Assembly: GCA_039621445.1 (NCBI GenBank)
Contig: CP154954.1
Location: forward strand, 48,649,847 to 48,713,846
Source: Euglena gracilis
Taxonomy: Eukaryota
Reading direction: 5' to 3'
DNA: 64,000 nucleotides
Shown here: in pieces, positions 3,395 through 63,530 of the stretch
Numbering within the stretch: position 1 is the stretch's first letter
How the letters are laid out: each line of letters opens with the position of its first letter
Translations under genes and position numbers: made by a program
Notes under the pieces: generated by a model
Seen by the model: only the letters and a program-made list of their open reading frames with translations
Database searches by the model: none
Told to the model about the DNA's origin: nothing

Positions 3395-6300
3395 GTCCCC
3401 CAAACCCAGCCAACGCTCAACGTCCCCTCTCAGCCATACCTCTTGGCCCCCAAGTCTCGCCTGCCACCGCTCCAGACGGCGAGAAGGGACACGGGCGCCG
3501 ACCGCCAAAGGCGAAGAGTGCGAAGGCCACCGTGTGCCTGGACTACCTGAAGGGGAAGTGCACGCGAGAGCGGCGCGCACTTGACTCACCCCCCCCCTAC
3601 CTCTCCGCCCTGGAGGGGTGAGTCCCAAAGATTACCGGCTTGTCAGTTCGAAAGATCTCCGGTTGATCACGGTGCAAATGCCAATTTGTATCCGAACCTG
3701 AACGCATTCTCTCTTGGCCGCTGATGGTTTTGACCTTTTGGTGCCTCCGGGCTCAAGGCTGCCTCGTCCACCCAAATGTGCGGGCAAGGAGCGTTTTAAG
3801 ACAATTCCGAAAGAATGTGTCGTTCTCAAATGCAACATGTGTTGTTGTTTTTCCCAACAAATATGGACCCTCTGCTGCATTCCAGGAATGCTGAACTTTA
3901 GCTAATTTATATTTACCATCGCCAATGTTTTTTTAATTTTGTTTCGCTTCAAAAGGTTTGGTGACAGCAGAGGTTGTTCTGTTTTTTAATATAAAAAAAT
4001 TGAGGGCTTTTGTGCCACAGTCCTGCAGATTGCCCTGTTGCTGATATTGGTAGACACCTGGAGTGTGTATTTTTAGTTAAAAAATACTGCATTCATTTTC
4101 CAAAAAAAAGCACCACAGACCTTCCGTCTTGTTTTTCTATTGTCGCCTACGCTTCGCCATTTTTTGAAGAGGATGGGGACAGTGGCATCTCCTTTTCTGG
4201 AGTTTGCCTGGACAGCGTCAATGTCACTGCTACGTGTCTCTACCTCCCCCCCCCTGGGGGAGCAACTGCCATGGCTGAGACCCTGCCAGCGTCCCACCCA
4301 AAAAAAATGATGACCATGAAAAATTCCTAATTTTGGCTCCGATTTTCCCCCAAAACCAAAAAAATGGTCAGTTTGTTGTCTTTGTTACCCCCGGGCCGGC
4401 CCTCCAGACAAAGGCACACCTTTCGACGACGCGGGGGGGGGGGGCAGGTGACCATGCACAGACCAGTCAAAACGGGGAACCACCCCCGCCGCCTTGAGTC
4501 AGGCGCGCCGGCCAGTGCCGCTACCCCCACCCCGACCTGACCCTGTTCCAGCGCCTGAGCGACACCGCCGGCGAGCAGGTGTGCGAGGTGTGGGCCGCCA
4601 CCGGCCTGTGCAAGTTCGGGGCGAAGTGCAACCGCCTGCACCCCGCCCAGTGGGGGCCATAGCCAGGTTCCATGCAAGAGGGTGCGTAGGGGGGTTGAGG
4701 AGGGGTGTCCCCCCTCCAACCCCCCCCCTGGACCAGAGGGGGGTCCAGACCATACCATTGCTTACAGTGCGTCCGACCCCCCCAGGGGGGTTGACTGACT
4801 GGTTTTTTCGGAGTGACTGACTGGTTTTTGGCTCCAGACCACCCCCCGTGGGTGGGGACGGCCAGGAATGGCTGAAAGGAGTGCCCACCCGGTGGCGAAG
4901 GCGCCGGAATTTTTGGGGGGGATTTTGGGCCAGAATCCATTGGTTTTAGGGCATTTTGAGGGATGCTATGGATAAGACAGGCTTCGTATTTTCGCAATAA
5001 TCCGAAAAGGAACCCCCCCCCAAATTGTGTGAAGTCCCCAGGAATGGAGGAATGGTATTTTTTGTTTATTTTTTTCAATTTATTTCATGTGTCGAAATTT
5101 TTCCAGAATTTTTATTAGCATTCAAAAATCGCATTTTTTGTGCTCTTTTTGCACGGGCAAGAAGTTTTTCAGCCAGACTTTTCAGCAGAAGTCAAAAACG
5201 CCCCCCCCCCCCAATGGGCATTTCAGCAACCAACCCAAAAAAGGCAGGCTCAGGGGCGTACACTGGGGACAGTGGTCCGTGCCGTGCCCCGAGCACCCCC
5301 ACTGGCCCCGTCTTTGAGCCGACCCCCAGCGACCCGGTCGGCGCCGCCCAGCCCGCCCCCGCCCTTGCCTCGCCGGCCGACCCCACGCCGCCGGCCGACC
5401 CCCAGGTGGAGTTCGAGACCTTCGCGCAGTCCCTGCTGAAGTCGGTGGACGAGGCCGGGTGGCGGCCAGCGCTGCCCCGGCCCCGGCCTCCCCGCAGAGG
5501 CTGGCGGTGGGGTGGGGGGTGGCGTCCGACCCCCGAGGGAGAGGCGCTCAATGGCCCCCGGGGCGGAAGAGAGCGTTGCCCCCCAGAGGGGGGGGGGTTG
5601 ACCCCCGGGTTTGCTCCTCCCCCGGCCAGGGAGACCCCCCAAGTGGGAAACCGGGGTGAGGGCCACTCACCGAGCGGCACAGCGGAGGGGAACCGAAGTC
5701 GATGCCGCCAACCCAAGGCGCTTTCGCTCAGTGGAGTGTCCCAAAGGTGGTCAGGGCAGGGGATAAAATGTGGTTTGCATTTTTGTGCATTTTTTTTGCA
5801 CTTTTTTCAAATTTTCCAAAACGCGCATTTTTTTTTCGCATTTTCGATTTTTCCAACACATTTTTGCTTTTTGGCACATTTTTTTTTGTGATGGACCCAA
5901 TTTTAAGCATTTTTGATCATTTTTGCAATTTTCTGAAATTTTCAAATTTTTTAACATTTTCCTCAGAATTCTATGTGATTTTTTATAATAAAAATTGGTG
6001 CCTTTTTTGCATGTTTTGGGGGGTAATTTTTGCATTTTCGTGATTTTTGTGCTGTTTCTCTCTGATTTTGCACATTTTTGGCATTTTCCCCAAAATGCGC
6101 ATTTTTTGCAAGGCCGGGCTGGCGCTCCCCCCCCCCTGTTCAGGGTTAAAGGGGTTCCTCAGGTGTGCAAGAGGTTTTCTGAAGCTGGAGGGGATCTGAC
6201 CCCCGGACGGGAGGGTTCCACACCAACCATTTAAGGTAAGCGTATGTCCCTACACCGCTGGAATTACACCAGAGTTGTTCACCTGGCCAGGCGGAGCTAC

Positions 6301-7349
6301 AAAAGAGCACTGTAATTGGTACCTGGCGACTCACCACACAGCAAACTGGGCCTGAAGCGAAGCTAGCGCCGGCCATAAACAGACAAGAAGCTGTTGCGCA
6401 ACTAGGGGAGGGGGTCCACACACAGACAAAATGGGCCAGAGGCGAAAAACAGCGCCAGGCCAGAGGAATGGATATCAGCACCAAACAAACAGCCACAGTG
6501 CACACAGTGGAGGGAGGTCCAGCCACCCAGCACCTTTTTTCCACCCACCAGCTCCAGTACCCCTCAGGGGGCCGCTGAAATGAAGTCTTGACCAGCCCAG
6601 CAGAGCAGGGCAGAATTTGGTGCAAAGCGCCGAAGATTTGTTGAACCTGCGTTCCAGCCAGGTCCTACCTGGCAGCCAGCTGGACCTCCCTCCCCTTGGA
6701 CCCTCCCCCCCCCCCAGGGGGAGGGTCCTACCTTGTTTACCCAGCTGGCCGTCTGGACCCCATCCCCCCCCCCTCACACCTCCAAGTCTCGGTTTACCAT
6801 TGGTGGGCCGAAGGTTGCTGCCCTCCCGTAGTGGTCGGAATGGGGTGGGGCAGCGCTGGCACCAGTCGGATGGTGAGAGGCTGCCCGTGGGCAAGGACCT
6901 CAGCGAGAAGCCACTGGGGCCCCCATCCGTGCAGTCGCTCTGTGGAGCCGAGGGCAATGTGTCATTTTCCGCTTTTGAGAATGCAACCCCGGAACCCCAT
7001 TGTCCACCCACAAGAAATTCCAAACCAAACCCAGCAAAAGAATCTCACGAACACCGCATTAACAACAGTTTGCAAAAGCTGCCGGCCAGTCCGGTGGGGC
7101 TGGAGGTAATTCGGGGAGGGGGGGGCAATTTATCAATTTATCGCCCGCAGGTGCTTTCTTTTGCTCTTGCCCGTATTTATTTCCTCCCATGCCACACCCC
7201 CGCCGTGCGAGTGGAACAGGTCGGGGGGGGGGGCTCCCAGCGGTTGCGTCGCCCCGACCTTCCTGGCCACCCGGGCCTTTCCCGCCGTGCTGCGGTTCGA
7301 TACCATCTTCCTCGACATCCTGAACGACCTCCACCTGGTGGCGTGCTGA
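3395..7349 (+). CDS. Tandem CCCH zinc-finger (MBNL/muscleblind-type spacing) putative RNA-binding protein, multi-exon, 5' end unresolved
   Basis: Exons ~3395-3570, 4513-4644, 5310-5463, 6864-~6940 and ~7175/7245-7349 (TGA). Spliced translation: ...KATVCLDYLKGKCTRE|QCRYPHPDLTLFQRLSDTAGEQVCEVWAATGLCKFGAKCNRLHP|VFEPTPSDP...KSVDEAGW|QSDGERLPVGKDLSEK...VAPTFLATRAFPAVLRFDTIFLDILNDLHLVAC*. This gives C-x7-C-x4-C-x3-H plus C-x8-C-x5-C-x3-H, with GC-rich third codon positions. Start codon and last junction uncertain. Confidence 0.85.
3571..4512 (+). other. Nonconventional intron (paired ends, non-CAG variant) splitting zinc finger 1
   Basis: 5' CGGCGCGCACTTGACTCA pairs with 3' TGAGTCAGGCGCGCCG. Applying the +4/-6 register gives GAG|CAG TGC and restores C-x4-C. 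No GT-AG solution keeps the frame. Confidence 0.75.
4645..5309 (+). other. Nonconventional intron
   Basis: gcc-CAGTGGGGG ... CCCCCACTG-gcccc; removal joins LHP|VFEP in frame. Confidence 0.85.
5464..6863 (+). other. Nonconventional intron
   Basis: ggc-CAGCGCTGCCCC ... GGGGCAGCGCTG-gcacc (12-bp perfect stem from CAG); removal gives in-frame W-Q-S-D. Confidence 0.85.
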
Positions 7350-10300
7350 CCCCCGCCAGGCAACCTGCGTCCAGGGGTTGCTGACGGCAGCCGCACAACG
7401 AAAAGAAAGGTTTGGCCCTTCTTTTTGAACTGCATGCGCCCCAACACTACATAGATGCCCCCCCCTTGTTCTTGGTTGAGCTTGTCCATGACACCACAGG
7501 GGGGGGGGTACCAGCTCAGACATTAGATACGTAAATGTGCAAGGGTGCAACATTTGCTTGACGAGGTTGGAAAAAGGTATTTTATTTTTTCAACCGGATT
7601 GTGTGAGCCACGCTTCTCCATTTCCTTTTTTATCATTTTTGCATCTGTGTTTCAGGATTTGCCCTTGTTTACAAGAACAATAGCTCTTCACTTTGGGTCT
7701 GTGCCATTTAACTGAGCTTAAAATTTCTGCCATCATTCATTCAGATGCTCGTTCAGCTGACAGGGTTTGTTTGACAGCATCAAAATCTGACCCAGGTGAA
7801 CCCAGGGAACGCATGGGCATTTAAAGCATCTGACAGGAAAAAGCCGTAAAAAATAAGGCAACAAAGAGAAAAAAAAACACAACAGCAAAATGCAAAGAAA
7901 AGGGTGGAAACCCGCGGAAATAAAGAAATACCGAAATGCCCCCCGACAGCATGATTTTTGATAAAGTTCGGGAAATATGTTATTTGGGACACCAAGAATT
8001 AACAAAAAAATTTCTAGGTTTGGCAGCCACAAAATTCTCCAACTTTTATTCCCGGGCAGCAGTGCACCGCCGGATGCGCAAGGTCTTCTGCTTAGGGTCT
8101 GTTGGAATTTTCATTGAAACGTTCCAGAAATTCTGTGCAGAAGTCGGTTTTGGATTCTGTTCGCATGCTCCCTCCCCCCCCCTCCTTCTCCAATGCCCTG
8201 GCCAACGTATGTGGCAGTGTTGCTGCCCACTTCCCCCCTGCCTCTCCCTGCTCTCCCTCGCTGTGAGGACGAGCAAGCTTTTAAAAAAAGAAACGGTGTA
8301 CCGCCTATGATTCACTTGGGACATGCTTTACTGCCAAACTTTTTTACCATCAGCCCTATGTGTTATGAAAACATGCAGAGGCTTATTATTCACTCAACGC
8401 GACGTTGGCAGTCACAAAACAACCCCAAAAAAATGGTGTTTGGAGTTGTCCCCTGGCTTGTTCTGATTACGTCTTCAGGGAACTGTCATCCTGTCCATAT
8501 TTTTGTATATTTTCGCGTTTTTCAATTCTTTTTTATGAGGTGTGGTGTCGTGAAAATTGCATCACTTATTCATCAACCTCGCCGGCCCCAATACACCCGC
8601 CCACACCCTTCAAACACCCACCCCCCCCCTGGGGGTGGGGTCACGCAGGCGTCATGTGAATCTATAATGACCCCCAAATGGCGTTTCAGGTCTTCCGAAA
8701 CATCATTGACCCCCTGTCCTTTGATTTGGGGGGGAGTTCATTGAACAAGGGCTATGGGTCTGGTTTTTTCCCAGGTGAAGGCCGGGGCCAGAAAATTTTT
8801 TCAGCGGTTCTGGGCCGATTTTGGCTGGATTTTGGGTGGTTGACCACCAAGGGGGGGGGGGGTGAGTGGGTTTTCGAAAAGTGGCTGGGTGGGTTTGGGG
8901 CTGGGAAAAAATGACCTCCAAGGGGTCCCTAAGTGAATCGATGTTTGGGGTTTTTTCTTTTAACTCATGTCATCAGGTTTGTCTGCATCTGCGAGTTAGT
9001 CCGGAGACATTCGTTTGTCAGGTGGGGAGGAGGAAGTGGCTTGCCCGGCTTGATGGCTCCTCACTGAGTGTGGTTCAGGCTTGGCAACGTGTCCCTCCCG
9101 CAGCCCTCCCTTCCCGCCAAACCAATCAAAATTTTCTGTGCCCCGCAGTCCGGCTGGGCCCTGCAACCCTCGCTTGTGCTGCCCTGTGGTGGTTGCCAGG
9201 CACGGGGAGGGGCTACGTTTTCCACAGCGCATATGGGCATCGCACACACGTTAGAGTGTCCCAGACCAGGTTTATTTTTAACAACGCGAGGAGGGGGCGC
9301 CTTGTGCGATGGGATGGTTGACGTATGGCACCCCTTCCCTGGGGGTGGGTTGGTTTTGGGCCGACCCAACCATTTTCACTTTAAAAATGGCCAATCTCGA
9401 GCCCAGTCAATCACGTAGTCACTGACCGACCCCCCCCCCCCGGCCCCGTGGGGGCTGACTGGTTTTTTCAGAGTGACTGACTGGTTTTTGGCCCGGACCC
9501 CCTCCCCGGGCCGGGGGGGAGTCGGCAAAAAAACCACTAAAGTGACCCGGCGCCGAAGGCGCCGGAAAATTTTTTTGGCTTTTTTTCATGTTTTTTGCTC
9601 AAATTTCTTTTGGATTCCAGAGTGGCCGACCCCCTGGGGGGGGGGGCAGTGACTGACTGGTTTCCCGAAACAGTGACTGACTGGAGTCCCCCCCCCGGAG
9701 GTCGGTAAAAAATTGTGTGCTCGAGCCCACCGCACCTTCGCCATTGGGGTAGCACGAGCCACCCCAAAACCCGACCACCCCGGAGGGGCCCACCCCCCTA
9801 CCTCCCTATTGCGCTCTCCCAAGGAGTGGACCTTTAAAAGAAGCCTGTACCTGGGCCATGATTGAAGATAAGGAAAAAGGCCAACCTTATGCAGGGGCCA
9901 AATTTGCATGTTAAAAATGTGCGAACGGCCTAAGGCCAACTTTAGGGGGCCAAGTTTGCATGTCAGGAGGAGGGGTGCCAAGCACCCTGGGGGGTACCAC
10001 TCCCAGGTCAGTCTTAACCCCTTGGAAGGTTGGCGGGTGGACTGCCCCTAGTCGGGGGGGGTGGGGCACCCCATCTGAATACTGTGACTTTTTACATTGA
10101 ACCCTGCCACCCCGCAGCCCTCTGGCTCTCTCGCAGTCATCCGCTTGGTTCCCACGGTCCCGCGTGTTCTGTCTGGTGGCCCCCCATAATATGATTTGAA
10201 TCCATTGGTGGGGGTCGGCAGTCCGACCCTCTGACCCCACGTCGAATGACCCGGACTTGTTTCGTGGCCTCCTCTCTTTGAAGAAATCTCCCTTTTCCTT

Positions 10301-13224: not shown

Positions 13225-13320
13225 TGGGGGTGTTTTGGGATCCTCTGTGAAAAGGTTGCCTCCAACGAGGACTTGCACAACTAAACTTAGGCAGCGCATC
13301 TCGCACTTAAGCTTTTTTGG

Positions 13321-14528: not shown

Positions 14529-16519
14529 GGAGCAGATGTGGGTGCTGGAGTGGAATGCAGGAACGGGGGTGTAGGAACACCAAAAAAAATTACCAAAAAT
14601 TGGATGAAGTCGCAAAAAGAGTGGCCAGAAGAAGCCAAAAGTGGTCAAGGAGCAGCCAAAAGTGACCAAAAGTGAACAAAAAGTGGCTAAAAGTGATCAA
14701 AGTTGGCCAAGAGCAGCATAAAGGACCAAAAGTTTTGGTTGTTTTAGTGCTTTATCAGGGTTTTGGTTGGACCCATCCTCCCTTGGGAGGGTATTTTTTC
14801 TGACCAAAAAACCCATATGGTTGGTGTTCCCACTTCCAATGGCATGGGTGCAGATCGACCACCCACGCACCAATTTTTTCCACCTGCTCATTCCGTTCCA
14901 TGTCTAACTGTCATCTCAGCTGATAGTTGTGATAATGGAAAAGAGTTGCAGTAATGCAGTGCAAGATTTCTTGGTTTTTCCATTTCTTTGTTCGCATACA
15001 CAAAAATTACAGAAGTTTGCAAAACAAAGCATACCACATCAAAAAAAATCAGAAAAATGGCAGACCACAGTGAAGTTTGAAGCACAAATTAAAAAATTCG
15101 TACACCACGTCTACATGATGAACCTCCCCTCCTTTCCCCTGTTCCGTCAGAAATAAAGAGAGGGCATTTGACTCTTTCGTTTTTCCAGTCACAATTCATA
15201 TTTATTCGTGATAATATGATTGACAACTGGCCCCAAATTGACAAAAACGGACGAAAAGTGCCCAAAGTTGCGACATTTAAGCCAAAAAAAAGGGAAAAAG
15301 TGGCCAACGATTCCAGCAGAGATTGATGATGTGCCATTCACCCGTGGTACGCCTCGTTATAAACATTTAACCTTTTGATAGCATTTGCCAGGAATTAACA
15401 CTGTGACATGTGACAACGAACCCTCTCTGAGGTCTTAGGTGCTTGGGCATCATCCCATATGGCGGACCGCAGTGGACTGCACACAACCGCTGACCGACGC
15501 CCCCCACCCCCCAGCCCCCCCCCCCAAACCCAAAACCAGGGCTGTGAGGGAATCCCCGAAACCCTTTTGGTGGTGGAAGGGGTCCAACCCCCTCCCACCA
15601 CGCTCTTCCGTATTTCCGGGGGCGCCGATTTTGGCCAAAGTTGTCTTTCGGCGCTGAAGATTGTTTTCTCTATTTCAACCCAATTTCAACTCTCTTTGTG
15701 TGCGTGTTGACCATCCCTCCAATTAACTCCATCCCTCTAATTAACAGCATAACTCCCCTTTTATTTTCCAGCGCTTTTTCTTTGTAATGTCTTTTTGTGT
15801 GCATGTTGACCTCACCTTATTTCTTCAATTAGCATCATATATAAAATGCATGCAAAAGGAGTTGGCAGAAAGATGGAGTGAATTGAATATTGCCACGTGT
15901 ATGACAGAAAGAAAAACTCACGGGATGATCTCTTCTTGCTTTATTTGTGTTGCGCAGGACCACTGCATTACATCACACAGAGGGGTCTTGTGCCAAACAA
16001 TTCGGTTGCCTCCAGTTGCCTAATTCCTGTCCCAGATTCTCGTGATACATCTCTGCACATGCGGAGGAGGAGGCTCTCGAGTCTCCTCGAACTTCCTTGA
16101 ACGATGTTCGAGGAGAGCCTCCTCCTACGGAGCCTCTACCACAAACCACCTGGGGGGGTCGACCCCCCCCACCAAGGCTTCCCACACAGCCCTGACCCCA
16201 CCCCAACCCCCTCCCCCCCCCAACCCGCTGCGGCTCTCTCCGACGGATGCCTGTCCCCTCCCTCCGTCCGTCCGCCATCCGCCAGGCCGACAGGCAACAC
16301 CCCAGGGGCCTTACAGCGGAAGACCCACTGGCTTGCTGCCCGCCGGTGCCCCGGCCAAAACCATAGCAACCCCAGACACCGTCATTGCCTTGGAGTGTGC
16401 TCCCTCGGTGCGGTGATTGCTTCCTCAGTGCCGTGCCCCAGGGAGAGTTTGCCACGCTGATAAAGGAGAAATGGACTCAAATAATCAAACCCAGTGGGAA
16501 TTCCCGGATCAGGAACAGG

Positions 16520-16863
16520 CAATTGCTTAAGCATTGACCGACCCCCCCCCCCCCCGGGGGGTGGGTGACTGGTTTTTTCAGAGTGACTGACTGGTTTTTG
16601 GCCCGGACCCCCTCCCCCCCCCCGGGGGGGGTTGGCCAGGAGTGGGCAAAAGTGGCTTGAGTGACCCCGGCGCCGAAGGCGCCGGAAAATTTTTTGGGCC
16701 TAAAATGGCTTAAAGTGACTGGAAAGTGGCCGTTTTTCTGAGTGGCCGACCCTCCGGGGGGGGGGGGTAGTGACTGGCTGGTTTTTTGAAAATGAGTGAC
16801 TGACTGGTTTTTAAAAAAGTGGAGTGCCCCCCCCTCCCCCCCCCGGGGGTCGGTAAGCAATTG
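16520..16863. mobile_element. MITE family with GTGACTGACTGGTTTT repeats and a central GGCGCCGAAGGCGCC hairpin
   Basis: CAATTGCTTA...ACCGACCCCC / GGGGGTCGGTAAGCAATTG termini. Other copies: 9425-9706, ~4755-4925, ~38500-39060 (reverse), ~42305-42500, ~55185-55390. Confidence 0.75.
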
Positions 16864-17812
16864 TATGATCAGGAAGTTGAAGGAGGTGGGGGTGGGGGGT
16901 AAGACACATTTCCACCCTCTCGCGGAAAGCGTCACCTCGACAAGTTCCCGCTGAAATGGTATGTTGGAAAATTTTGGGTGTTTTGCTGACAGATTTTGCT
17001 GTTTGCAGAAATTTGTTGTGCACTACAAAATAAACCGTTTGCGGGGCAGGATCGATGTTTTTTTTAGTCGGGTGCCTACCCCACCCCGGGGGGGATACTA
17101 GGGCAGGCACCCCATAACACCCCTGCCGACCCCCGGGGTGGGGGGGTGGGGTTTCGGGGGTGGGTTGGGGCACCCCTGTCCGGCTACCGATCCTGTTTTC
17201 TTTACCCTTTTGGCAAGGACCCACCCGACCCTGGGTTCCCCGGGCTGCCCTGCCCCCCCCCCCCCCCGAGCGGGGTGTGCCTGCAATGGGCAGGCAGGCA
17301 CCCTATGGCACCCACCCACCCCCCTCTCCCCCGGTTGGTAAAAAAAACCTGGGCTGGATTTCCAAGAGGGGAAAAGAGAGGCCATCACCGCCCCCCCCCC
17401 AATGAGGACGTCACCTTCCGGACTGGGAATTTGTCACCCCGGCTTGCATTCATTGAATGATTATGTTGGAAAGGTGTCAATTTCCCTGTGGGGGTACCAT
17501 CAAACTTTCCACGCCAATCTTTTTGGTGGTGAGACACCATTCTTTTTTGACAAACCTGCGGTGCCGACCCCCCCCCCAACAGAGAAGTATGGCTCGCTTG
17601 GGCAACTGCAAGGCCTCTTTTGCCTCCCCAGCATCGGTGGTGCAATTTCCAAATATTTTTGACAGATCTCTTGCAGCAATGAGGGGAAGGGGCAGGCAAT
17701 CGAGATGCTTCTTCCCTCTTCTGATCAAAGTCCTGACAAAATGACAGAAAACAAAAACGATGGGGCTTAATTTGTCCCATCATTTGCCCGCCTCAAATTT
17801 CTAGCACTCCTT

Positions 17813-17997
17813 CACAGGGTTCTCCCTCTTATATCAAAAGGGGGGGACGCCAGTTCTGTCGTGAACCCGGCGTCCCCGGACGCCGGGTTCACGACAGAAC
17901 CGGCGTCCCCCCCCCCTTGTTTAAAGCGGCGTTTTTGGGACGCCGGGTTCAGGACAGAACCGGCGTTCTCCCCCTTTAGGCAAGGGAGCACAACCGT
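17813..17997. mobile_element. Small MITE with an internal ~36-bp near-perfect hairpin
   Basis: GGACGCCAGTTCTGTCGTGAACCCGGCGTCC-cc-GGACGCCGGGTTCACGACAGAACCGGCGTCC (hairpin 17840-17913); a third arm copy at ~17938-17966; imperfect terminal IR. Confidence 0.65.
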
Positions 17998-18396
17998 ATC
18001 CAAAACCCTAACTCTAACCCTGACCGTATCCCTGACCCTAACCCTAACCATATCCCTAACCCCAACCCTAACCCTAACTGTATCCCAACCCTAACCCTGA
18101 CTGTATCCCACTATGTCCCAAACCCCGTGTCCCTAACCCTAACTGTAACCATATCCCTAACCCTAACCCTAAACCCTAACTGCATCTCTGACCCTAACCC
18201 TAACCCTAACCTTCACCCTAACCTTAGCCTTAAACGTATCCCTAACCCTAACCTGAACCCTAACCGTATCCCTAACCCTAATCCAACCCCTAATCCTAAC
18301 CCTAGCTGCGTCCCTGACCCTATCCTTATCTCGAACTGTAACCGTGTCCCTAACCCTAACCCAAACCCTAACTCTAACCGTATCCTGAACCCTAAC
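17998..18396 (+). repeat. Degenerate interstitial telomere-like (CCCTAA)n array, left part
   Basis: CCCTAA units interspersed with CCGTAT/CTGTAT/CCGTGT. Confidence 0.9.
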
Positions 18397-19858
18397 CAAG
18401 CACCTATAGCTAAAATGGCCTAAAATGGCCTAAAATGGCCTAAAATGGCCTAAAATGACTTTTTGACCCCCTATAGGTGGGGGTCCCTAAAATGGCCTAA
18501 AATGGCCTAAAATGGCCTAAAATGGCCTAAAATCGGAAAATTTTTGTTGCACAACAATTTTTTTTGTGAACAATTGTAGCCATTCAGGTAATGACTTTTG
18601 GTGTCTTTTGTCAATGTGGACGGCGAACAGTGGATTTGGTGGAGGAGCACAGCCCCACAAGACCCATTTTTTTTATCTCAACTAATAATAGTATCAGTTC
18701 CCAAATCCACGTTCCCCAGCCTTCTTTTGGTAGCTGAATTTTGGGGGATTTTCCAAAACCACAAATAATCACGCCGAATGATCAAATGACCTAAACAACT
18801 ACAAACAATTATGAATGAGATTCTCTCTTATTTATGAACGTCTTCAGAGGGTTTTCTTTTTAGTGTTAAGTTTCTCCAAGGGGGAAACAAAACACGGAGA
18901 AGAGGAATTGTTTTCAGCTTTGCCCTTTGATCTCTGCAATCGCCAAAAAAGGCCCAAATGGCTAAAACAATGCCAAAATCAAATTGAATTTCACCAGGCA
19001 ACAGCATCAAATTTGGCGTTGGACCGAAAATCCCCAAATGCCGTCTAAGGTTGGGGGTGTCTTATGGCGTGGGTGGGGTCTCTTATATTTGGGGGGAGGT
19101 TAAGGCTTGGGAGTCAATCTGCAGGTACCAACTTTGTATGCATAACCCCTTTTTTTGTGCAAAGCCTGCTGGAAGTTTGACACTCGTGCAAACTTGCTCT
19201 CTCATCATCACGTCATAGTGGCCTGTGAATACCCAACAAAAAAAGTCTCCACTCATTACGCTCAATTCCCCCACCTTCTCGAGTTAAACCCCTCAAAATT
19301 GCTCCGCACACAACACACAACCTAAAATTTTGGGAAACATATATTTTGGACCAGATGGGAAAAATATAAGCCACGTGCAGACAATGAAGATGAATTATTC
19401 CCCCAGAAAAGTCAGAAACTTCTTTTTGCGAAATCCCTTAAAATGGTATAGATTTCACAAAATACAAAAAACTGGACGCTTTTTTGGCAGCGCAAATAAA
19501 ATCTTTTATATTTGCCCAACGTTTTTTTCCCTGAAAATTTTTCACTGCCAAAAATTCTTACTGTTCAGAATTCCTCTATGGGCATGAATTAAGATTTGTT
19601 GAGCTTCCCATGGTTTTGATCCAGTGTTCATGAATTTTGCATGCTTTTTTGGATGTACATTACTCATTACTGAATAAGAGAAGGTTCGCACACGTTATCA
19701 TGCAGTTTTCGGGCAAAAATGACGCAAAATTATGATTTTCAGAACCCCCACCTATACCTTAAAATGGCCTAAAATGGCCTAAAATGGCCTAAAATGGCCT
19801 AAAATGGCCTACAATGGCCAAAAATGGGGGAATTTTTGGGCTTGACTATAGGTGCTTG
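18397..19858. mobile_element. hAT-type non-autonomous element with (AAAATGGCCT)n subterminal arrays
   Basis: TIR CAAGCACCTATAG...CTATAGGTGCTTG; 8-bp TSD ACCCTAAC (18389-18396 / 19859-19866). Confidence 0.9.
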
Positions 19859-20132
19859 ACCCTAACCCTAACTCTAACTGTATCCCGAACCCTAACCCTA
19901 ACTCTAACCGTGTCCCTAACTCTAACACTGACCGTATCCCTAACCCTAACCCTGACCCTGACTGTATCCCTAGCCCTAACCCTAACCGTGTCCTTAACCT
20001 TGACACTAACCGTGTCCCTAACCCCAACCCTGACCGCATCCCGCATGTCCCATAACCCTCTCCCTAAATGTGTCCCTAACCCAAGCCCTAACCCCACCCT
20101 ATCCCTAACCCCAACCCTAACCCCAACCCTAA
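19859..20132 (+). repeat. Degenerate interstitial telomere-like (CCCTAA)n array, right part
   Basis: Continues the left array after the hAT insertion. Confidence 0.9.
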
Positions 20133-20781: not shown

Positions 20782-21975
20782 CAGGCACCTATGCCGACCG
20801 CAGCCGACCGCAGCCGACCGCAGCCGACCGCAGCCGACCGCGGGTTTCAGGACTGTCATAGGTGGGGTGCCGACCGCAGCCGACTGCAGCCGACCGCGCA
20901 ACTTTTTTCTAATTGATGTCAATTTTTCAGTGAGAATGAGGAATTAGGCTCATTTTTATCCCAGATGTTGAGATTTTTCTGGCTCATCTGGCTTATGTTG
21001 TCACCTTTGGCCACTTTTGGCCATTTTTGGCCATTTTTGGTCGCTTTCGGCCCATTTGTCACCGTAATTCACCCATTTTGACCTATTTTGACAATTTTTG
21101 GCCACTTTTTGCCCACTTCTTGTGATTTTGGGCCATTTTGTCCTGCTCTTGGGCCATTTTGGGCCATTTTTTGACCATTTAAAGCCATTTTCGACCTTTT
21201 CTTTTGTTATTTTTGCCCATTTTTTGGTCTCTTTTTGGTCCAATTTAACCATTTTGAGCATTTTGCGCCAGTTTGTTGCCAAAAGTGAACAAAAGCTGCT
21301 AAAGTGACCCAAATTGGCCAAAAGCAGGGTCATTTTGGGTCATTTTTGGCTTTTTTGGACCACTTTGGGCATTTTTATTTTTATTATTTTTTGCTGCTTT
21401 TGGAACTTTTGGCCATTTTAACCATTTTTTGCCATTTTTAGGCCATTTTTAGGTCACGTTTGACTGCTCTTGATGTCAAAAGCAACAAAAAGACGTTTAA
21501 AGTGGCCTGAAAGTGGCCAGAAGTGGGTGAAAATGGCCAAAAGCAGAGAAAAGTGGTCAAAAGTGGGCAAAAGAGGCCAAAAGTGGTTAAAAGAGGTCAA
21601 AGCAAAGCAAAAGCTGGCCAAAAGCAGCCAAAGCACAGCAAAAAGTGACCAAAGCAACAAAAGTGACCAAAAGAAAGCAAAAGGCAGGAAATAATGGGCA
21701 AAGGCAGCAAAAATCGACCAAAAGTCGGCAACAGTGGCCAAAAGCAGTCCAAAAGCATCAAAAATTGGCCAAAAGCAGCGAAAAGTGGCCAAAAGTCGGC
21801 AACAGTGGATTGTGTGATTGTGATATGCACTCATTTTTTGTTGGCCTGCCCCCCACCTACAGCCAACTACTTTGCCGACCGCTGCCGACCACAGCCGACC
21901 GCAGCCGACCGCAGCCAACCGCAGCCGACCGCAGCCGACCGCGGGCTAAAATTTGGAATCTGTCATAGATGCTTG
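20782..21975. mobile_element. hAT-type non-autonomous element with (GCCGACCGCA)n subterminal arrays
   Basis: TIR CAGGCACCTATG...CATAGATGCTTG; perfect 8-bp TSD ATGGGGAG (20774-20781 / 21976-21983). Confidence 0.9.
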
Positions 21976-39600: not shown

Positions 39601-40396
39601 CCCCAGGGGTTTTTTTTTTAGCACCCGGGGGTCCAGACCCACCCACCCACTCACCCCCTGGGGGGGGGCTCCCCAGGGGGGGGGGCCACTTTTGGGGGGG
39701 GCACTTTTGGGGGGTCTATTTTGGGGACAAAAAAACTTTTGTTGCTGTGCACTGAAAATAGAGGGAAACCCCGCCTCGGCGGCCCGCCCCCCCCCCCCGG
39801 GGGGGGGCTTGGCAGGGACCCCCAGGGGTTTACGAAACTGAAAAAAATCTCTGAACCCCCCCCGTTTGGGGGGTCCAGAGCCCCCAACCCACCCACCCGC
39901 TCTCAGCAGGGGGTGTGGGCATACAGGTGTTAAATGACTCTGTGGTTTGTTCCCCCCCTCAGTTTAGGAGGGGGGAACACTCCACCCCGTACACCCTCCT
40001 TGTATCGAACCCTGCCCCTCGGCTGAGAGAACCCAATGGAGGTGACATAAAAAAGTACAAAAGCAGAGAAATGGGCATAGCAATGTAAAAACGCATACTT
40101 TAGACATTCTGCTGAGTCCAAGAGGAACCTCTTTGCAATATTGCCAAAAGCAGCACACCAATTTCCTCTGGTGGATGTTCAACATCAGGCAGCTCGCCCT
40201 CCTCCAGAGCTGCCTCACCAGCCGCCTCACATTTCACCTCATGGCCCTTCGCCACTGCATCCTCGGTCAGGAAATCACTTTCCAGAGCGGCCATCAGATA
40301 GGCTCGGGATGCATTGGGGCGGTTTCTTTGCATCAAAACCCCAAAGAGGGCGATGGCAGCAGCAATCAAGGCGGCTGGCATTGCGAGGGCAGTCAC
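33675..40396 (-). CDS. Probable plastid-targeted helical hypothetical protein, multi-exon, partial model
   Basis: Exon 40396-40159 (AG acceptor, GT donor) encodes VTALAMPAALIAAAIALFGVLMQRNRPNASRAYLMAALE..., a hydrophobic anchor followed by basic residues. Exons 35887-35842, 35795-35712, 34403-34308 and 34244-34196 splice to VSYDELLEEFLECSE|AQFPSLVARHIVHLTPGFFGRLQERRMA|TSDGEEKDVLMQLAIRIINEMTTAKSRITEML|NANDKTIAALLDLCKD. Exons at 36.05-36.25 kb and 33.6-34.1 kb are unresolved. A possible signal-peptide exon lies at ~43955-43800. Confidence 0.6.
34245..34307 (-). other. Short (63 nt) nonconventional intron, in frame and stop-free
   Basis: Minus strand ggc-CAGCCCGTTTCTG ... CAGAAGTGGGCTG-tttat: 13-bp stem with two G-U pairs in the +4/-6 register. 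Confidence 0.8.
35796..35841 (-). other. Short (46 nt) nonconventional intron
   Basis: Minus strand ggc-CAGAGATTGGCAC ... GTGCCAAACTCTG-ccaac (12/13 paired). Removal links the protein-like parts of two ORFs that are in different frames. Confidence 0.85.
37787..37982. repeat. ~195-bp repeat, inverted partner of 44551-44747
   Basis: Near-identical reverse complement; the ORF track shows matching MVGADPSYCH... translations on opposite strands. Confidence 0.9.
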
Positions 40397-45654: not shown

Positions 45655-45659
45655 ATATA

Positions 45660-45695
<36 letters not shown>

Positions 45696-45929
45696 TGTAT
45701 GTATGTATGTATGTATGTATGTATGTATGTATGCATGTATGTATGTATGTATGTATGTATGTATGTATGCATGTATGTATGTATGTATGTATGTATGTAT
45801 GTATGTATGTATGTATGTATGTATGTATGTATGTATGTATGTATGTATGTATGTATGTATGTATGTATGTATGTATGTATGTATGTATGTATGTATGTAT
45901 GTATGTATGTATGTATAGATATAGATATT
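45655..45929. repeat. (ATGT)n microsatellite
   Basis: Direct inspection. Confidence 0.95.
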
Positions 45930-45991
45930 ACACAAAATCGTCCATGTCACCCGGACACACGGTGTGTCCGGGTTACAATGGACGATTTTTG

Positions 45992-58036: not shown

Positions 58037-58067
<31 letters not shown>

Positions 58068-58112
58068 GTGTGTGGGGGGTGTGGGGGGGTGTGTTTTTGT
58101 GTTGTGTGTGTG

Positions 58113-58172
<60 letters not shown>

Positions 58173-61100
58173 ATGTATGTATGTATGTATGTATGTATGT
58201 ATGTATGTATGTATGTATGTATGTATGGCATCTGTGATTCAGGATCCGTGCTTATCCTGAATTGGATAACTCTGGATAACTACAGATAAGAACGGAGATG
58301 TGCGAAACCCGAAATACGGATGACCACGGATTAACTACGGATAAATATGGATATGTATGGATAAATGTGGATAATTATGGATATGGGGTCTGGCATAACT
58401 GAGGAGGGCTTTTGACTGAGAGGACGGGAGGTGTTTCATGTATCGTGCACATCAGCATTTGGATGCCAGTCAAATTCTTTTGATTGGTATTTGGACGTCT
58501 CAGAAGTTGCATTTAATCCGCCTTTTCTCATTGCATTTCATTGCAGTTTTTTTGGGGTGTTTGGCCCAGTCAATAACCTCCCCCCTAAAAAGTGCACGGG
58601 TGCGCGTATTTTTAGGACATAGTTTCGTACCCTGCAGGGGTGCGTGCACTCATTGGGGCACTGCTCACGGCAAGGCACAAAATACTAAATTTTCCACCAC
58701 TCTTTTTCAGTTTTTCCTATTCTTGTGATGTCAAGCAATGAGTCAGGTGATTATGTGTCAAATTTGGGCTCAGATGATAGAAGTATTTGGTCTGAGGAAG
58801 ACAGTATTGAGAAAAAACGTAAAGTCAGCATAATTGTGTGTGCTCTGACCTGATGTGGCAACAGTTTCTCCTTGGGGGGCATGCACTTTTTAGGGAGGTA
58901 GTTTGGGACCCTTTGGTGGTGCGCATTAATTGGGGCACTGCGCATAATTAGGGCACTGTGCACTTATCAGGGGGGTTACAAGCGCTTTTGCAATTACAAA
59001 TAATTACAGATAATTATGGACAACTATGGATGATTATGGATGAGGATTTGACCCCCAACGATGGATAAGCACCAACCCCTGTGTGTGTGTGTGTGTTATT
59101 TTCACAAAGTCTCAAAATGCTGTTATATGTTTCATATATGATTAGCAGGGCTCAGCTTGTTGAATGTGGGGCGGGTGTTTCATAGGACCGGGCTTGCTGC
59201 AAAAATTTCTTTTTGACGTACCCCCTCCCCCTAAATGAACCCCCTGCCCCACTGTTTCTCTGATTTGAGATTCATTGTTGCTCGTTCATGTTTCAGTTGT
59301 CTTCCAATAATGGCAGATCTGTGAAGGTTTTGAATTGCAGATTACATCTTTCAATGTAACATTCTGCTTTTTTTTTATGCGACCTTCAGAGCATGCAGCT
59401 CATGACACTGAGCCAGTTGGAGCAGCTCGCATGCAGCATTCTCCTCCACGAGATCGTATGTTCTTTTGCTTTCCAGTTGAAGTTTTTATCCATTTTCCCT
59501 TGTTTTGGAGGTTTTCCAGTTGCATTGGTGGCAACTAAAGATGAGAATGCATGCTTTGAAGAAAATGTCCTTGTCTCATACTGTATGTGATGATTTGACT
59601 AAAAGGTTCAAAAGTGGTCTTCTGTTTTTTTTTTATTGGGGCAACCGGATGACCCAAAATGTTATCTCGTGATTTTGATGTGTGTCACAGAATACTCTTT
59701 TGCAAATGATTTCTGAATGGATACCGCCCTTTTTTGTTACGTATGTCAGCTAGAACCAGGCCCGACCAGGGTCCAACCGGATCTACAAAATTAGCTTTGC
59801 AAAAAGGCCATCTCCCAAAACCCTTTATGCTTCTGTTCATCAATGCCGTAAATATGTTAACAGACAGGGTTGAATCACATAACTCTTGCCCCGGGACAGG
59901 CGCCTTTTCGCTGAATGGGGCAACTCTTTTCAGGGCCCCAACCCCACCCTCCCGACGACCTCGTCAGTCTGGCGTCGACGTTGCCGAAACCCCCAGAGGA
60001 CCTTGTGGCCTGGCTGTGGCACAGGATTCTCTGCCAGAAACCTGCCACCGCCTTGCTGTGTATGAGGTCCGACACGTCATCGTTGGAATGACCAACTTCC
60101 AATTGCATCTTCGCCTTTGAGAGAGGCCATCAATTCTCCCAACTGATGTGTGATCGCTGGGTGCAATGCACGTGGAGGATTTGGCCGCCGTTGACATTGC
60201 TGGGCCGCATTGCCAGTGCCAAACCTCCGGCGAGTCAGAGCACAGAACGTTCCGAACGCTGTTGCATTCCGGGTCGCCCACTCCGTTTGGTGTGCCCCGG
60301 CTTGCCCCGGCCCTGGTGGACGAGGGCGCGCCCACCCTTGGCACGGCCCCACCGCTGCCCCCCATGCCACCCCCACCCGCCGCCTTCCGGAGCGAGGGCC
60401 TGGGGCCCACCCCGCCCCGCCCAGCCTGGCCTCTGGTGGCAAACAGGAAGCCTTGGCTGCGACCGGCCGCTGCCTCCCCCCAGCCTGCAAGACTACGGAG
60501 CACCACTCCCACCGACGCCTCCCCCCCTGCCCCCGGGTCCCCCAGTGCACCTCTCAGTGCAGCACCGTTCAGGCAATCTGGGCCAATCTGGGTTGGTGGG
60601 TTCCCAGTCAAAAAACAGTGTTTTCCAGTTCAACGCATGGCAAGCCAAGCTGTGGTGGCACCGCCATCCAATGGACAAGAATTACGGCTTTTGCTCAGAA
60701 AGTGGACGTTCGTTTGCTGCGAGGGAGAAAGTCCGCATCTTTCCCTATTCTCAACCTCCCCCCCCCACATCTGGCTTCTCCTGTGCCTTGTGCCTCCCTC
60801 CGACCCCGGCGGCCTGCGACGCCCCTCGCCATTTGCTGTCGGGGACGGGGCCCTCCCGCTCCCCCCGGTTCCGCCCCCCTCCTCCTCCCTGCTGGCGGTT
60901 GACCCCGAGCTGGCCCTGCTGCAGGAGCGGCACCGCCCGGGACATTGCCAAAGGGGACGCCGTGTACCCAGTGGTGGGTGGGCTCCCAACGGACTCTGGA
61001 GGAACCCTCCTTCGCCCTGAACTGCTTGTTTTTCCCCCCCAAAATGCACCACCGACGCAGTGTGCCTCAGACACCCCTGGGTTTTTTGCAGAAATGGCAT

Positions 61101-63530
61101 TGGTTGATGTTTGCCCGCAGGCGGGCAAACATCATTGCCGAGGGCGCACGTTACCGGGACTCAGAGACGTTGCAGGGACTTGGGGGCTGGCCCTTTTTTT
61201 TTGGCTTGTAAGACCCCCTCCCCTGTGCGCGCGCATGTTCACTCACCACACGGAACACACCCGGCCAGATGCGAAGACCGCACTGGCATTAAAAAAATGA
61301 ACAAACATGAAACCTTTTTTGCATCAAAAGGGGGTCCGGAGCCAGGCTGGGTGGGGAACCCCTGGGGAAGGCTTCAAAAGAAGCCTGCTGGGGGGTACGG
61401 GTTGTGGTGGAACGCGACGCCCTGGCGCCGCCTACAGCTTCTCCAGCTGGAGAGGGAGAGGGACGAGCTGCAGCGCCGCGTGGCGGACGCCGAAATGCGG
61501 CGGAGTGGCGTGCGGCGGCTGACCGAAGACCGCAGACCCGCCCCCAAGGCCGCCAACCCTCCTCCGCGCGAAGAAGAGGTGTGGCGGCATGGGCCAGCCA
61601 GGCATGTTGCCCACCGCACATCCATGCCATGTGAACATTGGGGTTGGGGGAAGGGCAAAGCCCACTGTTTCATGTCCTCTGTATTTGAGAGGGGCTAACA
61701 GCCCAAGTAGATTACCAGTCTTCGTTCTGAAAGGGGTGGAAAGTGTTTTGATTTTATCTCAATGGTGAGGTTAGCAATGTGGATTGGTGTGGATTGGGAT
61801 GGATTAGTTTGGATTGAGTTTGCATCGGTGATGGGCATCTCTTTTGAATTTATCATTTTCATTTTTTATCATATTCATATTTATCATTATTATTGTTTGT
61901 TTTTATTACAGTTTTTTTTTGTAGCTTTTGAATTTTTTTGTTTTTTTGTTGTATGAACTGTATGAATTGTATTCGCTTTCTCCCAGACTGTGGACCGCAT
62001 CATGGCTGCGCCTTTGGAAGAAATGCAGCCACCTCTACCACCAGTGCCTCCTTGCCAGGCTTTTCCTCCTGTTCTCTTTGGTGTCAAACTCCATGCCAAA
62101 ACCCGGCAATGTGTTCACCCCCCCAGAGCTGACCCTGAGCCCCTTGGGTGGTGTATGAAGGGGGTTGTCCATTGAATATCCATTAGTGGGTGGGGTGGGT
62201 TGGACTCCCCCCACACCAGGTTTTCTTTTTTCTTTTCAAAGCTTTCAACGGGTATCCTTCAGATGCCTTCAGTACCGAAGGAATTTGTCCTTGCGAGCTG
62301 GCATACCCACCATGTGGCCCTGCCCCCCTGCCTGCCCACCAGTTGGAGGGCAGGCACAACACTTAGGGTATCCCGGTCCACTGGCTGACACGCGGCAGGG
62401 CAACCCCCCCTTTCTTTTCCAGGAATTCCTGGCTGGGTGGGCCCCACGGCCGCAACCAAACCGCAGTGCCCAGTTTTCTGCACGTTCGGGTTCTCCCGCG
62501 CCGAATTCGCATCAAAGTCCCCCCCCCCTGATGGTGTCGGAGTGCTGTTTCACAAACAAAAGCCTGCCCTCGGCCCGCCCCCACTGCCCGCCACCGCCCC
62601 GCCCAGCAGCGGCGGCATGCAGATCCGGCTGAAGACCGAGGACTTGACGCAGCTACACACCGAAGAACGCGCAGCGGCGGTGGAGGTGGAGATGCGCGTC
62701 ATCCCCAGCATTGAAGGTGCTGGCCCATGAGTTCCACTCCGCACTCCCTCTGTCTGGTTTGAGCAATCTTTGTCCAACAATCCAGTTCAAGGCAAATTCT
62801 CCAATTTGACATAGTTTCGATCAAAATTTGTTTTTTCTGATTTTTGTGAACACTCATCCAAAATTTTGGGGAAAAATTACCGCCCCTGCCAAGAGCTGGC
62901 TCCCCTCTTCTGTGGAGTCAGGGTTTTTTTTTAGTCTTGGACCCTGGGGGGGGGGGCAGGGGGGGTGGGTCTGGCTGAGCCCCCTCCCCCCCGGGGGGGG
63001 GGTCCCCCCAGGGGGTGGGATATACTTTTCGGCGCCAAAGGCACCGAAATTTTTTGAAAGAGGTGCCTTTTTTTAGCATTTTTGTTATTTTTTTGGCCTT
63101 TTCAGGGAAAAGTGGGTTGGGTCCCCCAACCCCCCCCCCCGGCCAGGGGGTGGGCGGGTGGGGGGGGGACCCCCCCTCCCCCCAGTCTTAAAAAAAACCC
63201 CTGGGTGGAGTGATCATGGTTGACAAAAGCAAACAGGGCATTTAGCCATTGTGCATGTATTATGTGCCCATCACATCCCTCTGTTACGGCTTACACCGAA
63301 AGGTGGCTGCCGTTTTCCCTGGGGAAAAAGACAGACTACGTGGCGATGCACACGCGGTCCCTTCTCTCTCAGTGGGCAATCCCCGGCCCGTTGCCTGGCC
63401 ATTCGCGGAGGGGGCTGGGGCCAGTGCCCCCCAGCCAGCCCCGCCCCCGCCGCCCCCGCCCCCGCCTGCCGCCCCGGCGCTGTTCAGCGGGCCACCCCCG
63501 GACACCCCAGACCAGCAGCAGTGCCACCTT
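49937..63530 (+). CDS. PCF11: Pcf11-like CTD-interacting-domain (CID) protein, multi-exon, 3' end unresolved
   Basis: Exons ...-53378, 53963-54077, 55465-55607 and 56070-56246 splice to DFQFVKDY|YSSLEKLTQPEKWTIDTLTSIAKDAMDDHAKEIVYAIER|RIYSATGDAKLAAWYLLDSIAKNVGGVYVNRFAEHLPKMACRNMQITG|SNQQKYAKLLRTWAEMAVFPPEVFQRIKEE. This matches the Pcf11 CID pattern (SSLE.LT; KL..WYLLDSI.KNVG; L..TW...F). Upstream in-frame GT-AG exons: 49937-49957, 50011-50154, 51111-51462, 51522-~51592 (link to the CID inferred). Downstream exons: ~59390-59455, 59934-~59990, ~60315-60440, 60897-60934, 61430-61578 (coiled coil), 61987-62100, 62458-62716, ~63300-63530. Confidence 0.75.
52197..52526. mobile_element. MITE with GGGGATGCCGA TIR and 3-bp TSD (AAA); PIF/Harbinger-like geometry
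   Basis: GGGGATGCCGACACACGGTGTGCGGCACA vs TGTGCCGCACACCGTGCTTCGGCATCCCC; AAA on both sides. Confidence 0.75.
53379..53962 (+). other. Nonconventional intron within the CID
   Basis: tgc-CAGGGTTCGCTTC ... GGAGTGACCCCCTG-ccccc; removal yields GAT TAC T|AC TCC AGC TTG GAA (DYYSSLE), the conserved CID start. Confidence 0.85.
53527..53813. mobile_element. MITE (TIR CAAGGA.GGATATTG) nested in the nonconventional intron 53379-53962
   Basis: CAAGGACGGATATTGGATATCGG vs CCAATATCAATATCCATCCTTG; internal TATCGG repeats. Confidence 0.7.
54078..55464 (+). other. Conventional GT-AG intron within the CID
   Basis: GAAAG|GTATGA ... GAACAG|GAGGATC gives IER-RIYS in frame. Confidence 0.85.
56743..57152. repeat. 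Compound degenerate (CA)n/(AG)n/(TA)n microsatellite
   Basis: Direct inspection. Confidence 0.9.
57606..58227. repeat. Degenerate (TG)n plus (TATG)n microsatellite
   Basis: Direct inspection. Confidence 0.95.
58240..59081. mobile_element. MITE with CAGG...GTGCTTATCC TIRs and degenerate GGATAA(C/T)TA(C/T) 10-mer arrays; carries a nested MITE (~58521-58979)
   Basis: CAGGATCCGTGCTTATCC vs GGATAAGCACCAACCCCTG; 10-mers near both ends; no clear TSD. Confidence 0.6.
60935..61429 (+). other. Nonconventional intron
   Basis: gcc-CGGG ... CCCTG-gcgcc; joins LALLQERH|RLQLLQLERERDELQRR, a continuous coiled coil. The exact position slides within a CCGCC direct repeat. Confidence 0.75.
62101..62457 (+). 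other. Nonconventional intron (CGG/CCG variant)
   Basis: acc-CGGCAATGTG ... CACGGCCG-caacc; phase-0 junction LHAK|KPQCP. Confidence 0.55.

Follow-up and report, generated by a model that had tools for sequence, protein, structure and literature searches.

The nonconventional introns of euglenids have no GT-AG borders, a helix that joins their ends from +4/-6 at offsets of 3 and 5-6 nt, and slidable junctions; their origin and removal are still described as unknown in the accessible portions of the literature. In E. agilis such introns make up 71.8% of all introns, and a splicing code, 5'-N3CDG-/-CH'GN5-6^R-3' (where ^ is the exon junction), has been tested by knock-in, according to the accessible text of Nomura et al. 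(2025; PMC12501133). Here we describe a stretch of Euglena gracilis DNA (contig CP154954.1, 64,000 nt; this whole 64 kb stretch is called the window throughout) in which a CCCH zinc-finger gene with five introns of this kind lies among elements that carry terminal inverted repeats (TIRs) and 8 bp target-site duplications (TSDs). We tentatively suggest that the introns and the elements are connected, and that the sum of the offsets of 3 and 5 nt is tied to the 8 bp length of the duplication.

The same work states that the 5' spacer is strictly 3 nt and that the 3' spacer is best at 5 nt with 6 tolerated, that CGG-CTG variants splice and that the code covers 61.2% of nonconventional introns (PMC12501133). 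The positions of CAG at +4 to +6 and of CTG at -8 to -6 had been described earlier (Milanowski et al., 2014), and the accessible published record also contains a pyrimidine^purine preference at both junctions, a conserved C at exon position 3 and the suggestion that an endonuclease mechanism removes the introns. An origin from elements akin to MITEs (miniature transposable elements with inverted repeats) was proposed in 2014, in a paper stating that transposable elements had not yet been identified in euglenid genomes, and was repeated in 2016, 2024 and 2025; a 2024 review (PMC11282704) uses 'TIR' as its label for the ends of the introns and 'TSD' for the repeats at the junctions. The accessible text of these papers names no TSD length, superfamily or actual element for the idea. 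We found no link between 3+5 and an 8 bp TSD in the literature covered; supplements and the JMB 2021 circular-RNA paper lie outside that coverage and may hold it.

Proposed origin of the introns

The data are those of one 64 kb window together with published papers. We favour the explanation that many nonconventional introns descend from exonic insertions of hAT-like TIR elements with 8 bp TSDs, and hold it as a tentative choice that falls somewhat short of being probable. In these introns a helix starting with a CAG/CTG-type triplet pair joins the ends, and it has been shown elsewhere that the distance from this helix determines the cut: the RNA is cleaved 3 nt beyond the helix on the 5' side and 5 (sometimes 6) nt beyond it on the 3' side. 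The resident non-autonomous TIR transposons duplicate 8 bp of their target and end in CA(G/A)...(C/T)TG. If such an element inserted into an exon, cuts at 3 and 5 would remove the element and exactly one copy of the 8 bp duplication. The message would then be restored without a scar, the exonic insertion could persist as an intron and the sum of both offsets would be tied to the length of the TSD.

The starting points are the geometry of the introns, the elements with their TSDs and a modest excess of identity between cognate flanks, all of which we observe in the window; the descent itself, a sum of 8 that is not coincidental and the relationship to hAT are what we infer from them. Only the step that equates 3+5 with 8 and with the length of a (hAT) TSD is new, the geometry and the MITE/TSD idea having been published already. 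Concrete elements with 8 bp TSDs and CAG...CTG ends, combined with 3+5=8, turn a loose idea into a quantitative prediction for genome annotations. If the explanation is true, it would account for the fact that the offsets in the splicing code are fixed.

Introns of the zinc-finger gene

The gene, gene A, was located by tblastn of the protein P0001 on the window. P0001 is eukprot EG_transcript_12097 (199 aa; we take the 'EG_transcript' names to be those of the Euglena gracilis transcriptome, and accordingly regard the window as nuclear DNA of E. gracilis type), a CCCH zinc-finger protein. Its match spans all five junctions of gene A, with 91-100% identity in each of the six exons, and the segment 5310-5564 is 92% identical to it. 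Judged by this exon identity, the copy in the window and the expressed one may be alleles of one gene or close paralogues. The intron analyses rest on the five transcript-supported introns, I1-I5, plus a predicted intron, IB, where six are stated.

2688..7349, plus strand: gene A, CCCH zinc-finger protein
2688-2727, 3452-3570, 4513-4644, 5310-5463, 6864-6920 and 7252-7349, plus strand: exons of gene A, boundaries refined
2728..3451, plus strand: intron I1; 10 bp stem CAAGAGGTAT/ATACCTCTTG at 2731-2740 and 3436-3445
3571..4512, plus strand: intron I2; triplets CGC/GCG at +4 to +6 and -8 to -6, by sequence reading
4645..5309, plus strand: intron I3; N3-CAG...CTG-N5 then G, 9 bp perfect stem
5464..6863, plus strand: intron I4; N3-CAG...CTG-N5 then A, 12 bp perfect stem CAGCGCTGCCCC
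6921..7251, plus strand: intron I5; triplets CAT/TTG in the 3/5 register, 6/7 pairs by eye
60935..61429, plus strand: predicted intron IB; N3-CGG...CTG-N5 then G, from frame continuity only

GT-AG borders are absent from all five introns of gene A and from IB, and helices that pair the ends are legible in the sequence. The first paired triplet stands at +4/-6, giving offsets of 3 and 5 and a sum of 8, in four of the five transcript-supported introns; the triplet pairs from I1 to I5 are CAA/TTG, CGC/GCG, CAG/CTG, CAG/CTG and CAT/TTG. End-to-end cofolds of I1-I4 gave -20 to -56 kcal/mol.

I3 reads gcc+CAGTGGGGG ... CCCCCACTG+gcccc, and its excision gives ...NRLHP^VFEPT..., in agreement with the transcriptome-derived Euglena protein. 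The 8-mers outside its stem, ACCCCGCC and GCCCCGTC, match at 6/8 positions and its junction is slidable over CCCCG. The flank 8-mers of I4 match at 3/8, which amounts to no repeat. I1 has offsets of 3+6 and hence a sum of 9; its 9-mer flanks, CCCACCAAG and GCCCCCAAG, match at 7/9, its junction is slidable over CCAAG and its ends, CAAG...CTTG, resemble those of element family A described below. In I2 the complementary 8-mer pair CGGCGCGC/GCGCGCCG reaches +1/-3 and the flanks match at 3/8; here the cofold picked a register slightly different from that of the sequence reading, within a GC repeat. I5 has flanks matching at 4/8 at offset 0 and at 6/8 at offset +1, with a junction slidable over CCCC, and its stem is the one chosen, on pairing, among five slidable positions. 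The predicted intron IB has the sequence gcc+CGGG ... CCTG+gcgcc and is flanked by GCACCGCC and GCGCCGCC (7/8); its stem is weak (four pairs, one of them G-U), and a competing stem pair, 60916-61452, likewise keeps a frame open.

A reading of the window made earlier from the letters alone (the sequence-only reading) had described the geometry as 3 nt + CAG...CTG + 5 nt, and had reported flank matches of 6/8 at 4645-5309 and of 7/8 at 60935-61429, with 0-4/8 in the others. The geometry is real and equals the published euglenid code, with a sum of 8 in all the supported introns except I1. The letters and coordinates of the two matches are correct, and the 3-4/8 that we find in the other four introns of gene A agrees with the remaining figure.

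I3, I4 and IB follow the published code strictly, whereas I1 (CAA/TTG), I2 (CGC/GCG) and I5 (CAT/TTG) keep its register with triplets that lie outside the strict code. The downstream exon begins with a purine in I1 (in the N3/N6 placement), I3, I4 and IB. In these respects, and in their borders, helices, offsets and slidable junctions, the introns of the window are ordinary euglenid nonconventional introns with nothing essential different about them.

Elements with 8 bp target-site duplications

Six TIR elements of at least four sequence types, and the start of a further copy of one of them, lie in the window (strand is given only where assigned):

18397..19858: MITE A1; TIR CAAGCACCTATAG at both ends; TSD ACCCTAAC at 18389-18396 and 19859-19866, 8 bp perfect
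20782..21975: MITE A2; TIR CAGGCACCTATG / CAAGCATCTATG; TSD ATGGGGAG at 20774-20781 and 21976-21983, 8 bp perfect
63875..64000, plus strand: third family A copy; begins with exact CAAGCACCTATAG and ends at the window edge
16516..16867: MITE B1; ends CAGGCAATTGCTTA ... TAAGCAATTGTATG; 8 bp TSD ATCAGGAA at 16508-16515 and 16868-16875
9404..9719: MITE B2; ends CAGTCAAT ... ATTGTGTG; 8 bp TSD CTCGAGCC at 9396-9403 and 9720-9727
62919..63203: MITE C; TIR CAGGGTTTTTTTTTAG / CAGGGGTTTTTTTTAA; flanks TGTGGAGT and GGTGGAGT, 7/8
38292..40014: candidate element D, 1.7 kb; TIR CAGGGTTCGATGAAAG / CAGGGTTCGATACAAG; flanks GCCCTGGG and CCCCTCGG, 6/8

The cognate 8 nt flanks of the six elements match at 8, 8, 8, 8, 7 and 6 of 8 positions, and non-cognate pairs at 1-5/8. 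The perfect 8 bp TSDs and inverted termini that the sequence-only reading had noticed at 18397-19858 and 20782-21975 are confirmed. MITE B2 is about 75% identical to B1, and candidate element D contains nested family B-like copies. The TIRs of family A start with CAAGCACC... and those of MITE C and element D with CAGGGTT....

A strict census covered all CA...TG inverted-repeat pairs that match at 10 or more of 12 positions and are separated by 80-5000 bp, once low-complexity sequence had been taken out (n=1,766). Exact flanking repeats numbered 23 at a length of 3, 8 at 4, 2 at 5, 3 at 8, 1 at 10 and 2 at 11, with none at 6, 7, 9 or 12. The cases of length 10 and 11 belong to long palindromes, in which flanks that are themselves palindromic form direct repeats as a matter of course. 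The TSDs of the elements clearly exceed chance, and TIR elements with 8 bp TSDs and CA(G/A) termini are real and frequent in the window. A looser census (TIR at least 8/10, TSD at least 7/8) was discarded as it gave noise at all shifts.

The ends of MITE C and element D, CAGGG...CCCTG, are exact CAG...CTG termini that fit the published splicing code. MITE C together with its flanks reads N3-CAG...CTG-N5 followed by a purine in both orientations. Position 6 of the TSD, with which the exon would open, is occupied by a purine in 5/5 well-preserved MITE TSDs; this matches the published ^R rule, and with n=5 is a hint only.

Some further features of these families were observed. MITE A1 is inserted in a degenerate telomere-like (AACCCT)n satellite with a 78 bp period (17992-18397 and 19859-20135), internal to the contig, which looks like an interstitial telomeric array and is too degenerate to supply a paralogous empty site for comparison with A1. 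The ends of family A (18397-18520, 19740-19858, 20782-20900 and 21850-21975) each hold a terminal repeat, then 10 nt tandem repeats and then the terminal motif in inverted orientation, CTATAGGTGGGGG, so that each end would be able to fold back on itself; the tandem unit varies between copies (GGCCTAAAAT vs GCCGACCGCA). When a family B 20-mer was used to scan metagenomes, it gave four loci that shared only 21-22 nt and were not Euglena-like, and these were set aside.

Identity of the intron flanks

An origin by insertion predicts that the 8 nt before the stem match the 8 nt after it. At this register the introns I1-I5 and IB score 4, 3, 6, 3, 4 and 7, a total of 27/48. Over offsets from -8 to +8 the six-intron sum is 27 at 0, 23 at +1 and 12-20 at the remaining 15. 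A local null built from neighbouring exon 8-mers gives 13.0 +/- 3.2, and 27 was reached in 6e-5 of 200,000 draws; this null is too lenient, since there is also a likeness between flanks taken from different introns. When partners were shuffled among the six introns, a sum of at least 27 was obtained in 9/720 permutations and in 0/265 derangements. The five transcript-supported introns score 20/40 against 15.2 when shuffled, with 20 reached in 5/120 permutations, and when either offset 0 or +1 is allowed they score 25 against 17.4 (1/120 permutations).

These figures indicate that a modest cognate-specific signal exists at the predicted register and that intron flank identity is moderately above chance. 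The prediction, which the sequence-only reading had made, is partly borne out in that the peak lies at offset 0 and cognate flanks exceed shuffled ones; its two best matches barely exceed the 6/8 seen between different introns. Part of the identity that it reported is explained by a shared junction motif, roughly GC.CC^G.C. The motif could be a preference of the enzyme or, equally, a target-site preference of the inserting element.

A published intron bears on the length of the repeat. The accessible text of Milanowski et al. (2016) describes intron 4 of gapC, a nonconventional intron that strain ACOI 323 of E. agilis alone possesses, with 'eight nucleotide direct repeats' at its junctions, the longest among the introns studied there. 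This is exactly what an origin by transposition predicts for a fresh insertion, and our explanation offers another reading of the repeat in this newly gained intron. Its discoverers read the repeats as a footprint of double-strand-break repair, by analogy with Daphnia (Milanowski et al., 2016). On that account new introns are made by filler-DNA repair of staggered breaks and direct repeats are repair footprints rather than TSDs. From such repair one would expect no terminal inverted repeats, no fixed length of 8 nt flush with the helix and no peak at a single register, and it leaves the co-resident elements of the same length and termini unexplained. We consider this account very unlikely.

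Weighing descent against coincidence

Matches of I1, I3 and I4 in a self-comparison of the window are internal only, and none reaches an intron terminus. Two of the matching pieces can be assigned:

2950..3290, plus strand: family A-like MITE fragment nested in I1; starts CAAGCACCTATAA, has subterminal tandem repeats and no recognisable 3' end
4746..5031 (about), plus strand: degenerate family B-like MITE nested in I3; no TSD found

Their internal position marks these as secondary insertions. The sequence-only reading, which proposed that the introns may be spliced-out hAT MITEs, is borne out as to the presence of elements with matching termini and TSDs and not as to homology with whole introns: only nested insertions were seen. 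Nor do the intron termini have relatives elsewhere in the window.

Several observations weigh against descent from insertions of this kind. No intron is homologous end to end to a TIR element within the 64 kb window, and no report of nonconventional introns forming sequence families was found in the accessible literature. Recent bursts of MITEs would yield such families, so the lack of reports counts here as well. In knock-ins, according to the accessible published text, splicing of synthetic introns proceeds with arbitrary spacers, so that repeats are dispensable to the machinery. Families A and B, the two commonest, have 3' ends (TTG, ATG and GTG) that fail the strict CH'G rule. As to the flanks, non-cognate pairs from different introns average 3.2/8 vs 2.2/8 for local sequence, and the left flank of I3 against the right flank of IB, like the left flank of IB against the right flank of I3, reaches 6/8. 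These values are close to the cognate 6/8 and 7/8, which suggests that much of the identity is junction consensus. I2 and I4 have no repeat, I1 requires a sum of 9, and all the tests are post hoc, having been designed after the data were seen, with n=5 or 6 introns. With regard to hAT, a Pfam search of 10 long open reading frames (ORFs) of the window gave 0 matches and no transposase, and the only DNA transposons that we found reported in E. gracilis are Merlin elements, with 8 bp TSDs and TIRs that start with GG (PMC8101967, accessible text).

The main rival explanation is that the number is a coincidence. An RNA endonuclease would measure its offsets of 3 and 5 from the helix, leaving the excised intron, if the helix is continued outward, with a 2 nt 3' overhang in the manner of RNase III; the likeness of the flanks would be a preference common to both cut sites (...CC^G.C), and the MITEs would be unrelated residents that accumulate in introns. 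Several observations fit this account. Published work reports the pyrimidine^purine preference at both junctions and a C conserved at exon position 3, an endonuclease mechanism has been suggested in print, arbitrary spacers splice in knock-ins, and the flanks of different introns are alike (3.2/8 on average, up to 6/8). The complementary run of I2, by sequence reading, extends to +1/-3 and leaves 2 unpaired 3' nt, and I1 and I3 hold their MITE pieces in a nested position, away from the termini. However, cognate flanks beat shuffled partners (9/720 and 5/120 permutations), and the identity peak is sharp at offset 0/+1. A consensus cannot yield the 8 nt repeat of the strain-specific gapC intron, and the sum, the TSD length and the CAG/CTG termini would have to be three simultaneous coincidences. 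We doubt this explanation, while regarding it as a real possibility.

Descent from insertions would give the same pyrimidine^purine preference at both junctions, as these would be two copies of one target. It fixes the sum of the offsets only and leaves the split into 3 and 5 unexplained. If the helix were continued outward, cuts at -3 and +5 would leave a 2 nt 3' overhang, which suggests an RNase III-like activity. Such a split is compatible with an origin by transposition and is also the core of the coincidence account. Taken together, the window supports the origin that we favour strongly through its elements, weakly through the flanking repeats and not at all through whole-intron homology.

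A stronger form of the proposal can be stated. Nonconventional splicing in euglenids would serve to excise DNA transposons of a single class, without a scar and at the RNA level. Its cuts would fall at 3 and 5 because 3+5 equals a TSD of 8, and old insertions of hAT-like MITEs into exons would account for most nonconventional introns of a Euglena genome, which number several hundred thousand. We think this form unlikely. In it, the cutting enzyme may have co-evolved with the transposon's machinery, or may even derive from it.

Other features of the window

The predicted intron IB belongs to a candidate gene, gene B (60-63.6 kb), and a further candidate, gene C, lies at 31.3-33.2 kb on the minus strand. 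Word-based searches gave no transcript homologue for either. An exhaustive search for relatives of the two gave one protein, P0002 (140 aa, public), which is 70% identical across the whole open frame 62389-62727, including parts that are not exon-like. P0002 probably stems from ORF calling on genomic sequence of a paralogous contig, and as such is uninformative on splicing. On the minus strand, the segments 31363-31493 and 32932-33086 are exon-like, rich in G+C at third codon positions (GC3) and 79% identical; they lie about 1.5 kb apart, both encode ...DVFVSTLHSY... and may represent a tandemly duplicated part of a gene.

Prediction of introns from the pattern was dropped. CAG...CTG stems of at least 7 bp give 446 pairs on the plus strand, and when open GC3-rich flanks are added chance still dominates, with 183 candidates in 3.9 kb.

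Other repeats are present. A near-perfect palindrome of 470 bp lies at 24086-24555; its self-complementarity is 86%, and its inner arms, 20 and 32 bp long, match exactly. At 46092-47042 two blocks of a palindromic repeat of 63 bp (95% alike) surround about 670 bp of unique sequence, and this foldback-like arrangement may be another mobile element. A palindromic motif of the type GGGGGGTCGACCCCCC recurs in G/C runs (16154, 20187, 20687, 29384 and others), often at the ends of repeated segments. Long simple repeats comprise (CA)n of about 410 bp at 714-1124, (TATG)n of about 260 bp at 45658-45916 and (GT)n of about 620 bp at 57607-58224. Rfam gave 0 matches on the window.

Comparison with known transposons and introners

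The TIRs of hAT transposons follow the consensus YARNG. MITE C and element D, which start with CAGGG, fit it, whereas families A and B (CAAGC, CAGGC and CAGTC) have C and not G at the fifth position, and their third and fourth positions are imperfect. The Ac-type TSD consensus is nTnnnnAn, and at either fixed position only 3/5 of the TSDs of the window agree with it; they do not follow the hAT Buster consensus, nnnTAnnn. Transposons of the hAT superfamily are described as having 8 bp TSDs and short TIRs of 5-27 bp, and the TIRs of Mar, a hAT MITE of Drosophila willistoni, start with CAG(G/A)G (PMC3517528, accessible text). The window elements are like Mar in their 8 bp TSDs and short TIRs, in the start shared by MITE C and element D, and in having no coding capacity at sizes of 0.3-1.7 kb. 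They differ from hAT MITEs in having no linked transposase in the window, and in the literature covered, papers that mention Euglena, hAT and transposon together do not report hAT in Euglena. The term 'hAT-like' is thus used here as a label of resemblance, membership of hAT being unproven.

P, Zisupton and other transposons also make 8 bp TSDs. The origin by transposition could therefore be right and the superfamily another one with 8 bp TSDs, whether Merlin-, P- or Zisupton-like or undescribed. The TSD length is not unique to hAT, no hAT transposase was found, the fifth TIR base of families A and B is C, and Merlin elements with 8 bp TSDs are documented in E. gracilis itself; I1 and possibly I5 fit a 9 nt register, and Merlin TSDs are 8-9 bp long. 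Merlin resembles the window elements, then, in organism, in its 8 bp TSDs and in having TIRs. It differs in that its TIRs all begin with GG and it encodes a DDE_Tnp_IS1595 transposase (PMC8101967, accessible text), whereas all six window elements begin with CA and have no recognisable coding content. Mar and other hAT MITEs typically have TIRs starting with CAG(G/A)G, and short TIRs and sizes below 2 kb fit the published description of hAT. We consider an origin by transposition from a superfamily other than hAT improbable. The assignment to hAT made by the sequence-only reading keeps the support of the 8 bp TSDs and of the CAGGG starts of MITE C and element D; it has that of no transposase, and 8 bp TSDs occur in several superfamilies.

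Introners, as described in the accessible text of a review (PMC11282704), provide the closest parallel for the process. Part of the splice junction of an introner comes from its TSD. Introners are excised by the spliceosome and fall into evident sequence families, whereas removal of the introns considered here is thought to be non-spliceosomal, and the window contains no intron family or whole-intron copy of a MITE. In common with the origin proposed here, introners have TIRs and TSDs, and the element is removed from the RNA together with one copy of the TSD, so that insertions into exons are tolerated.

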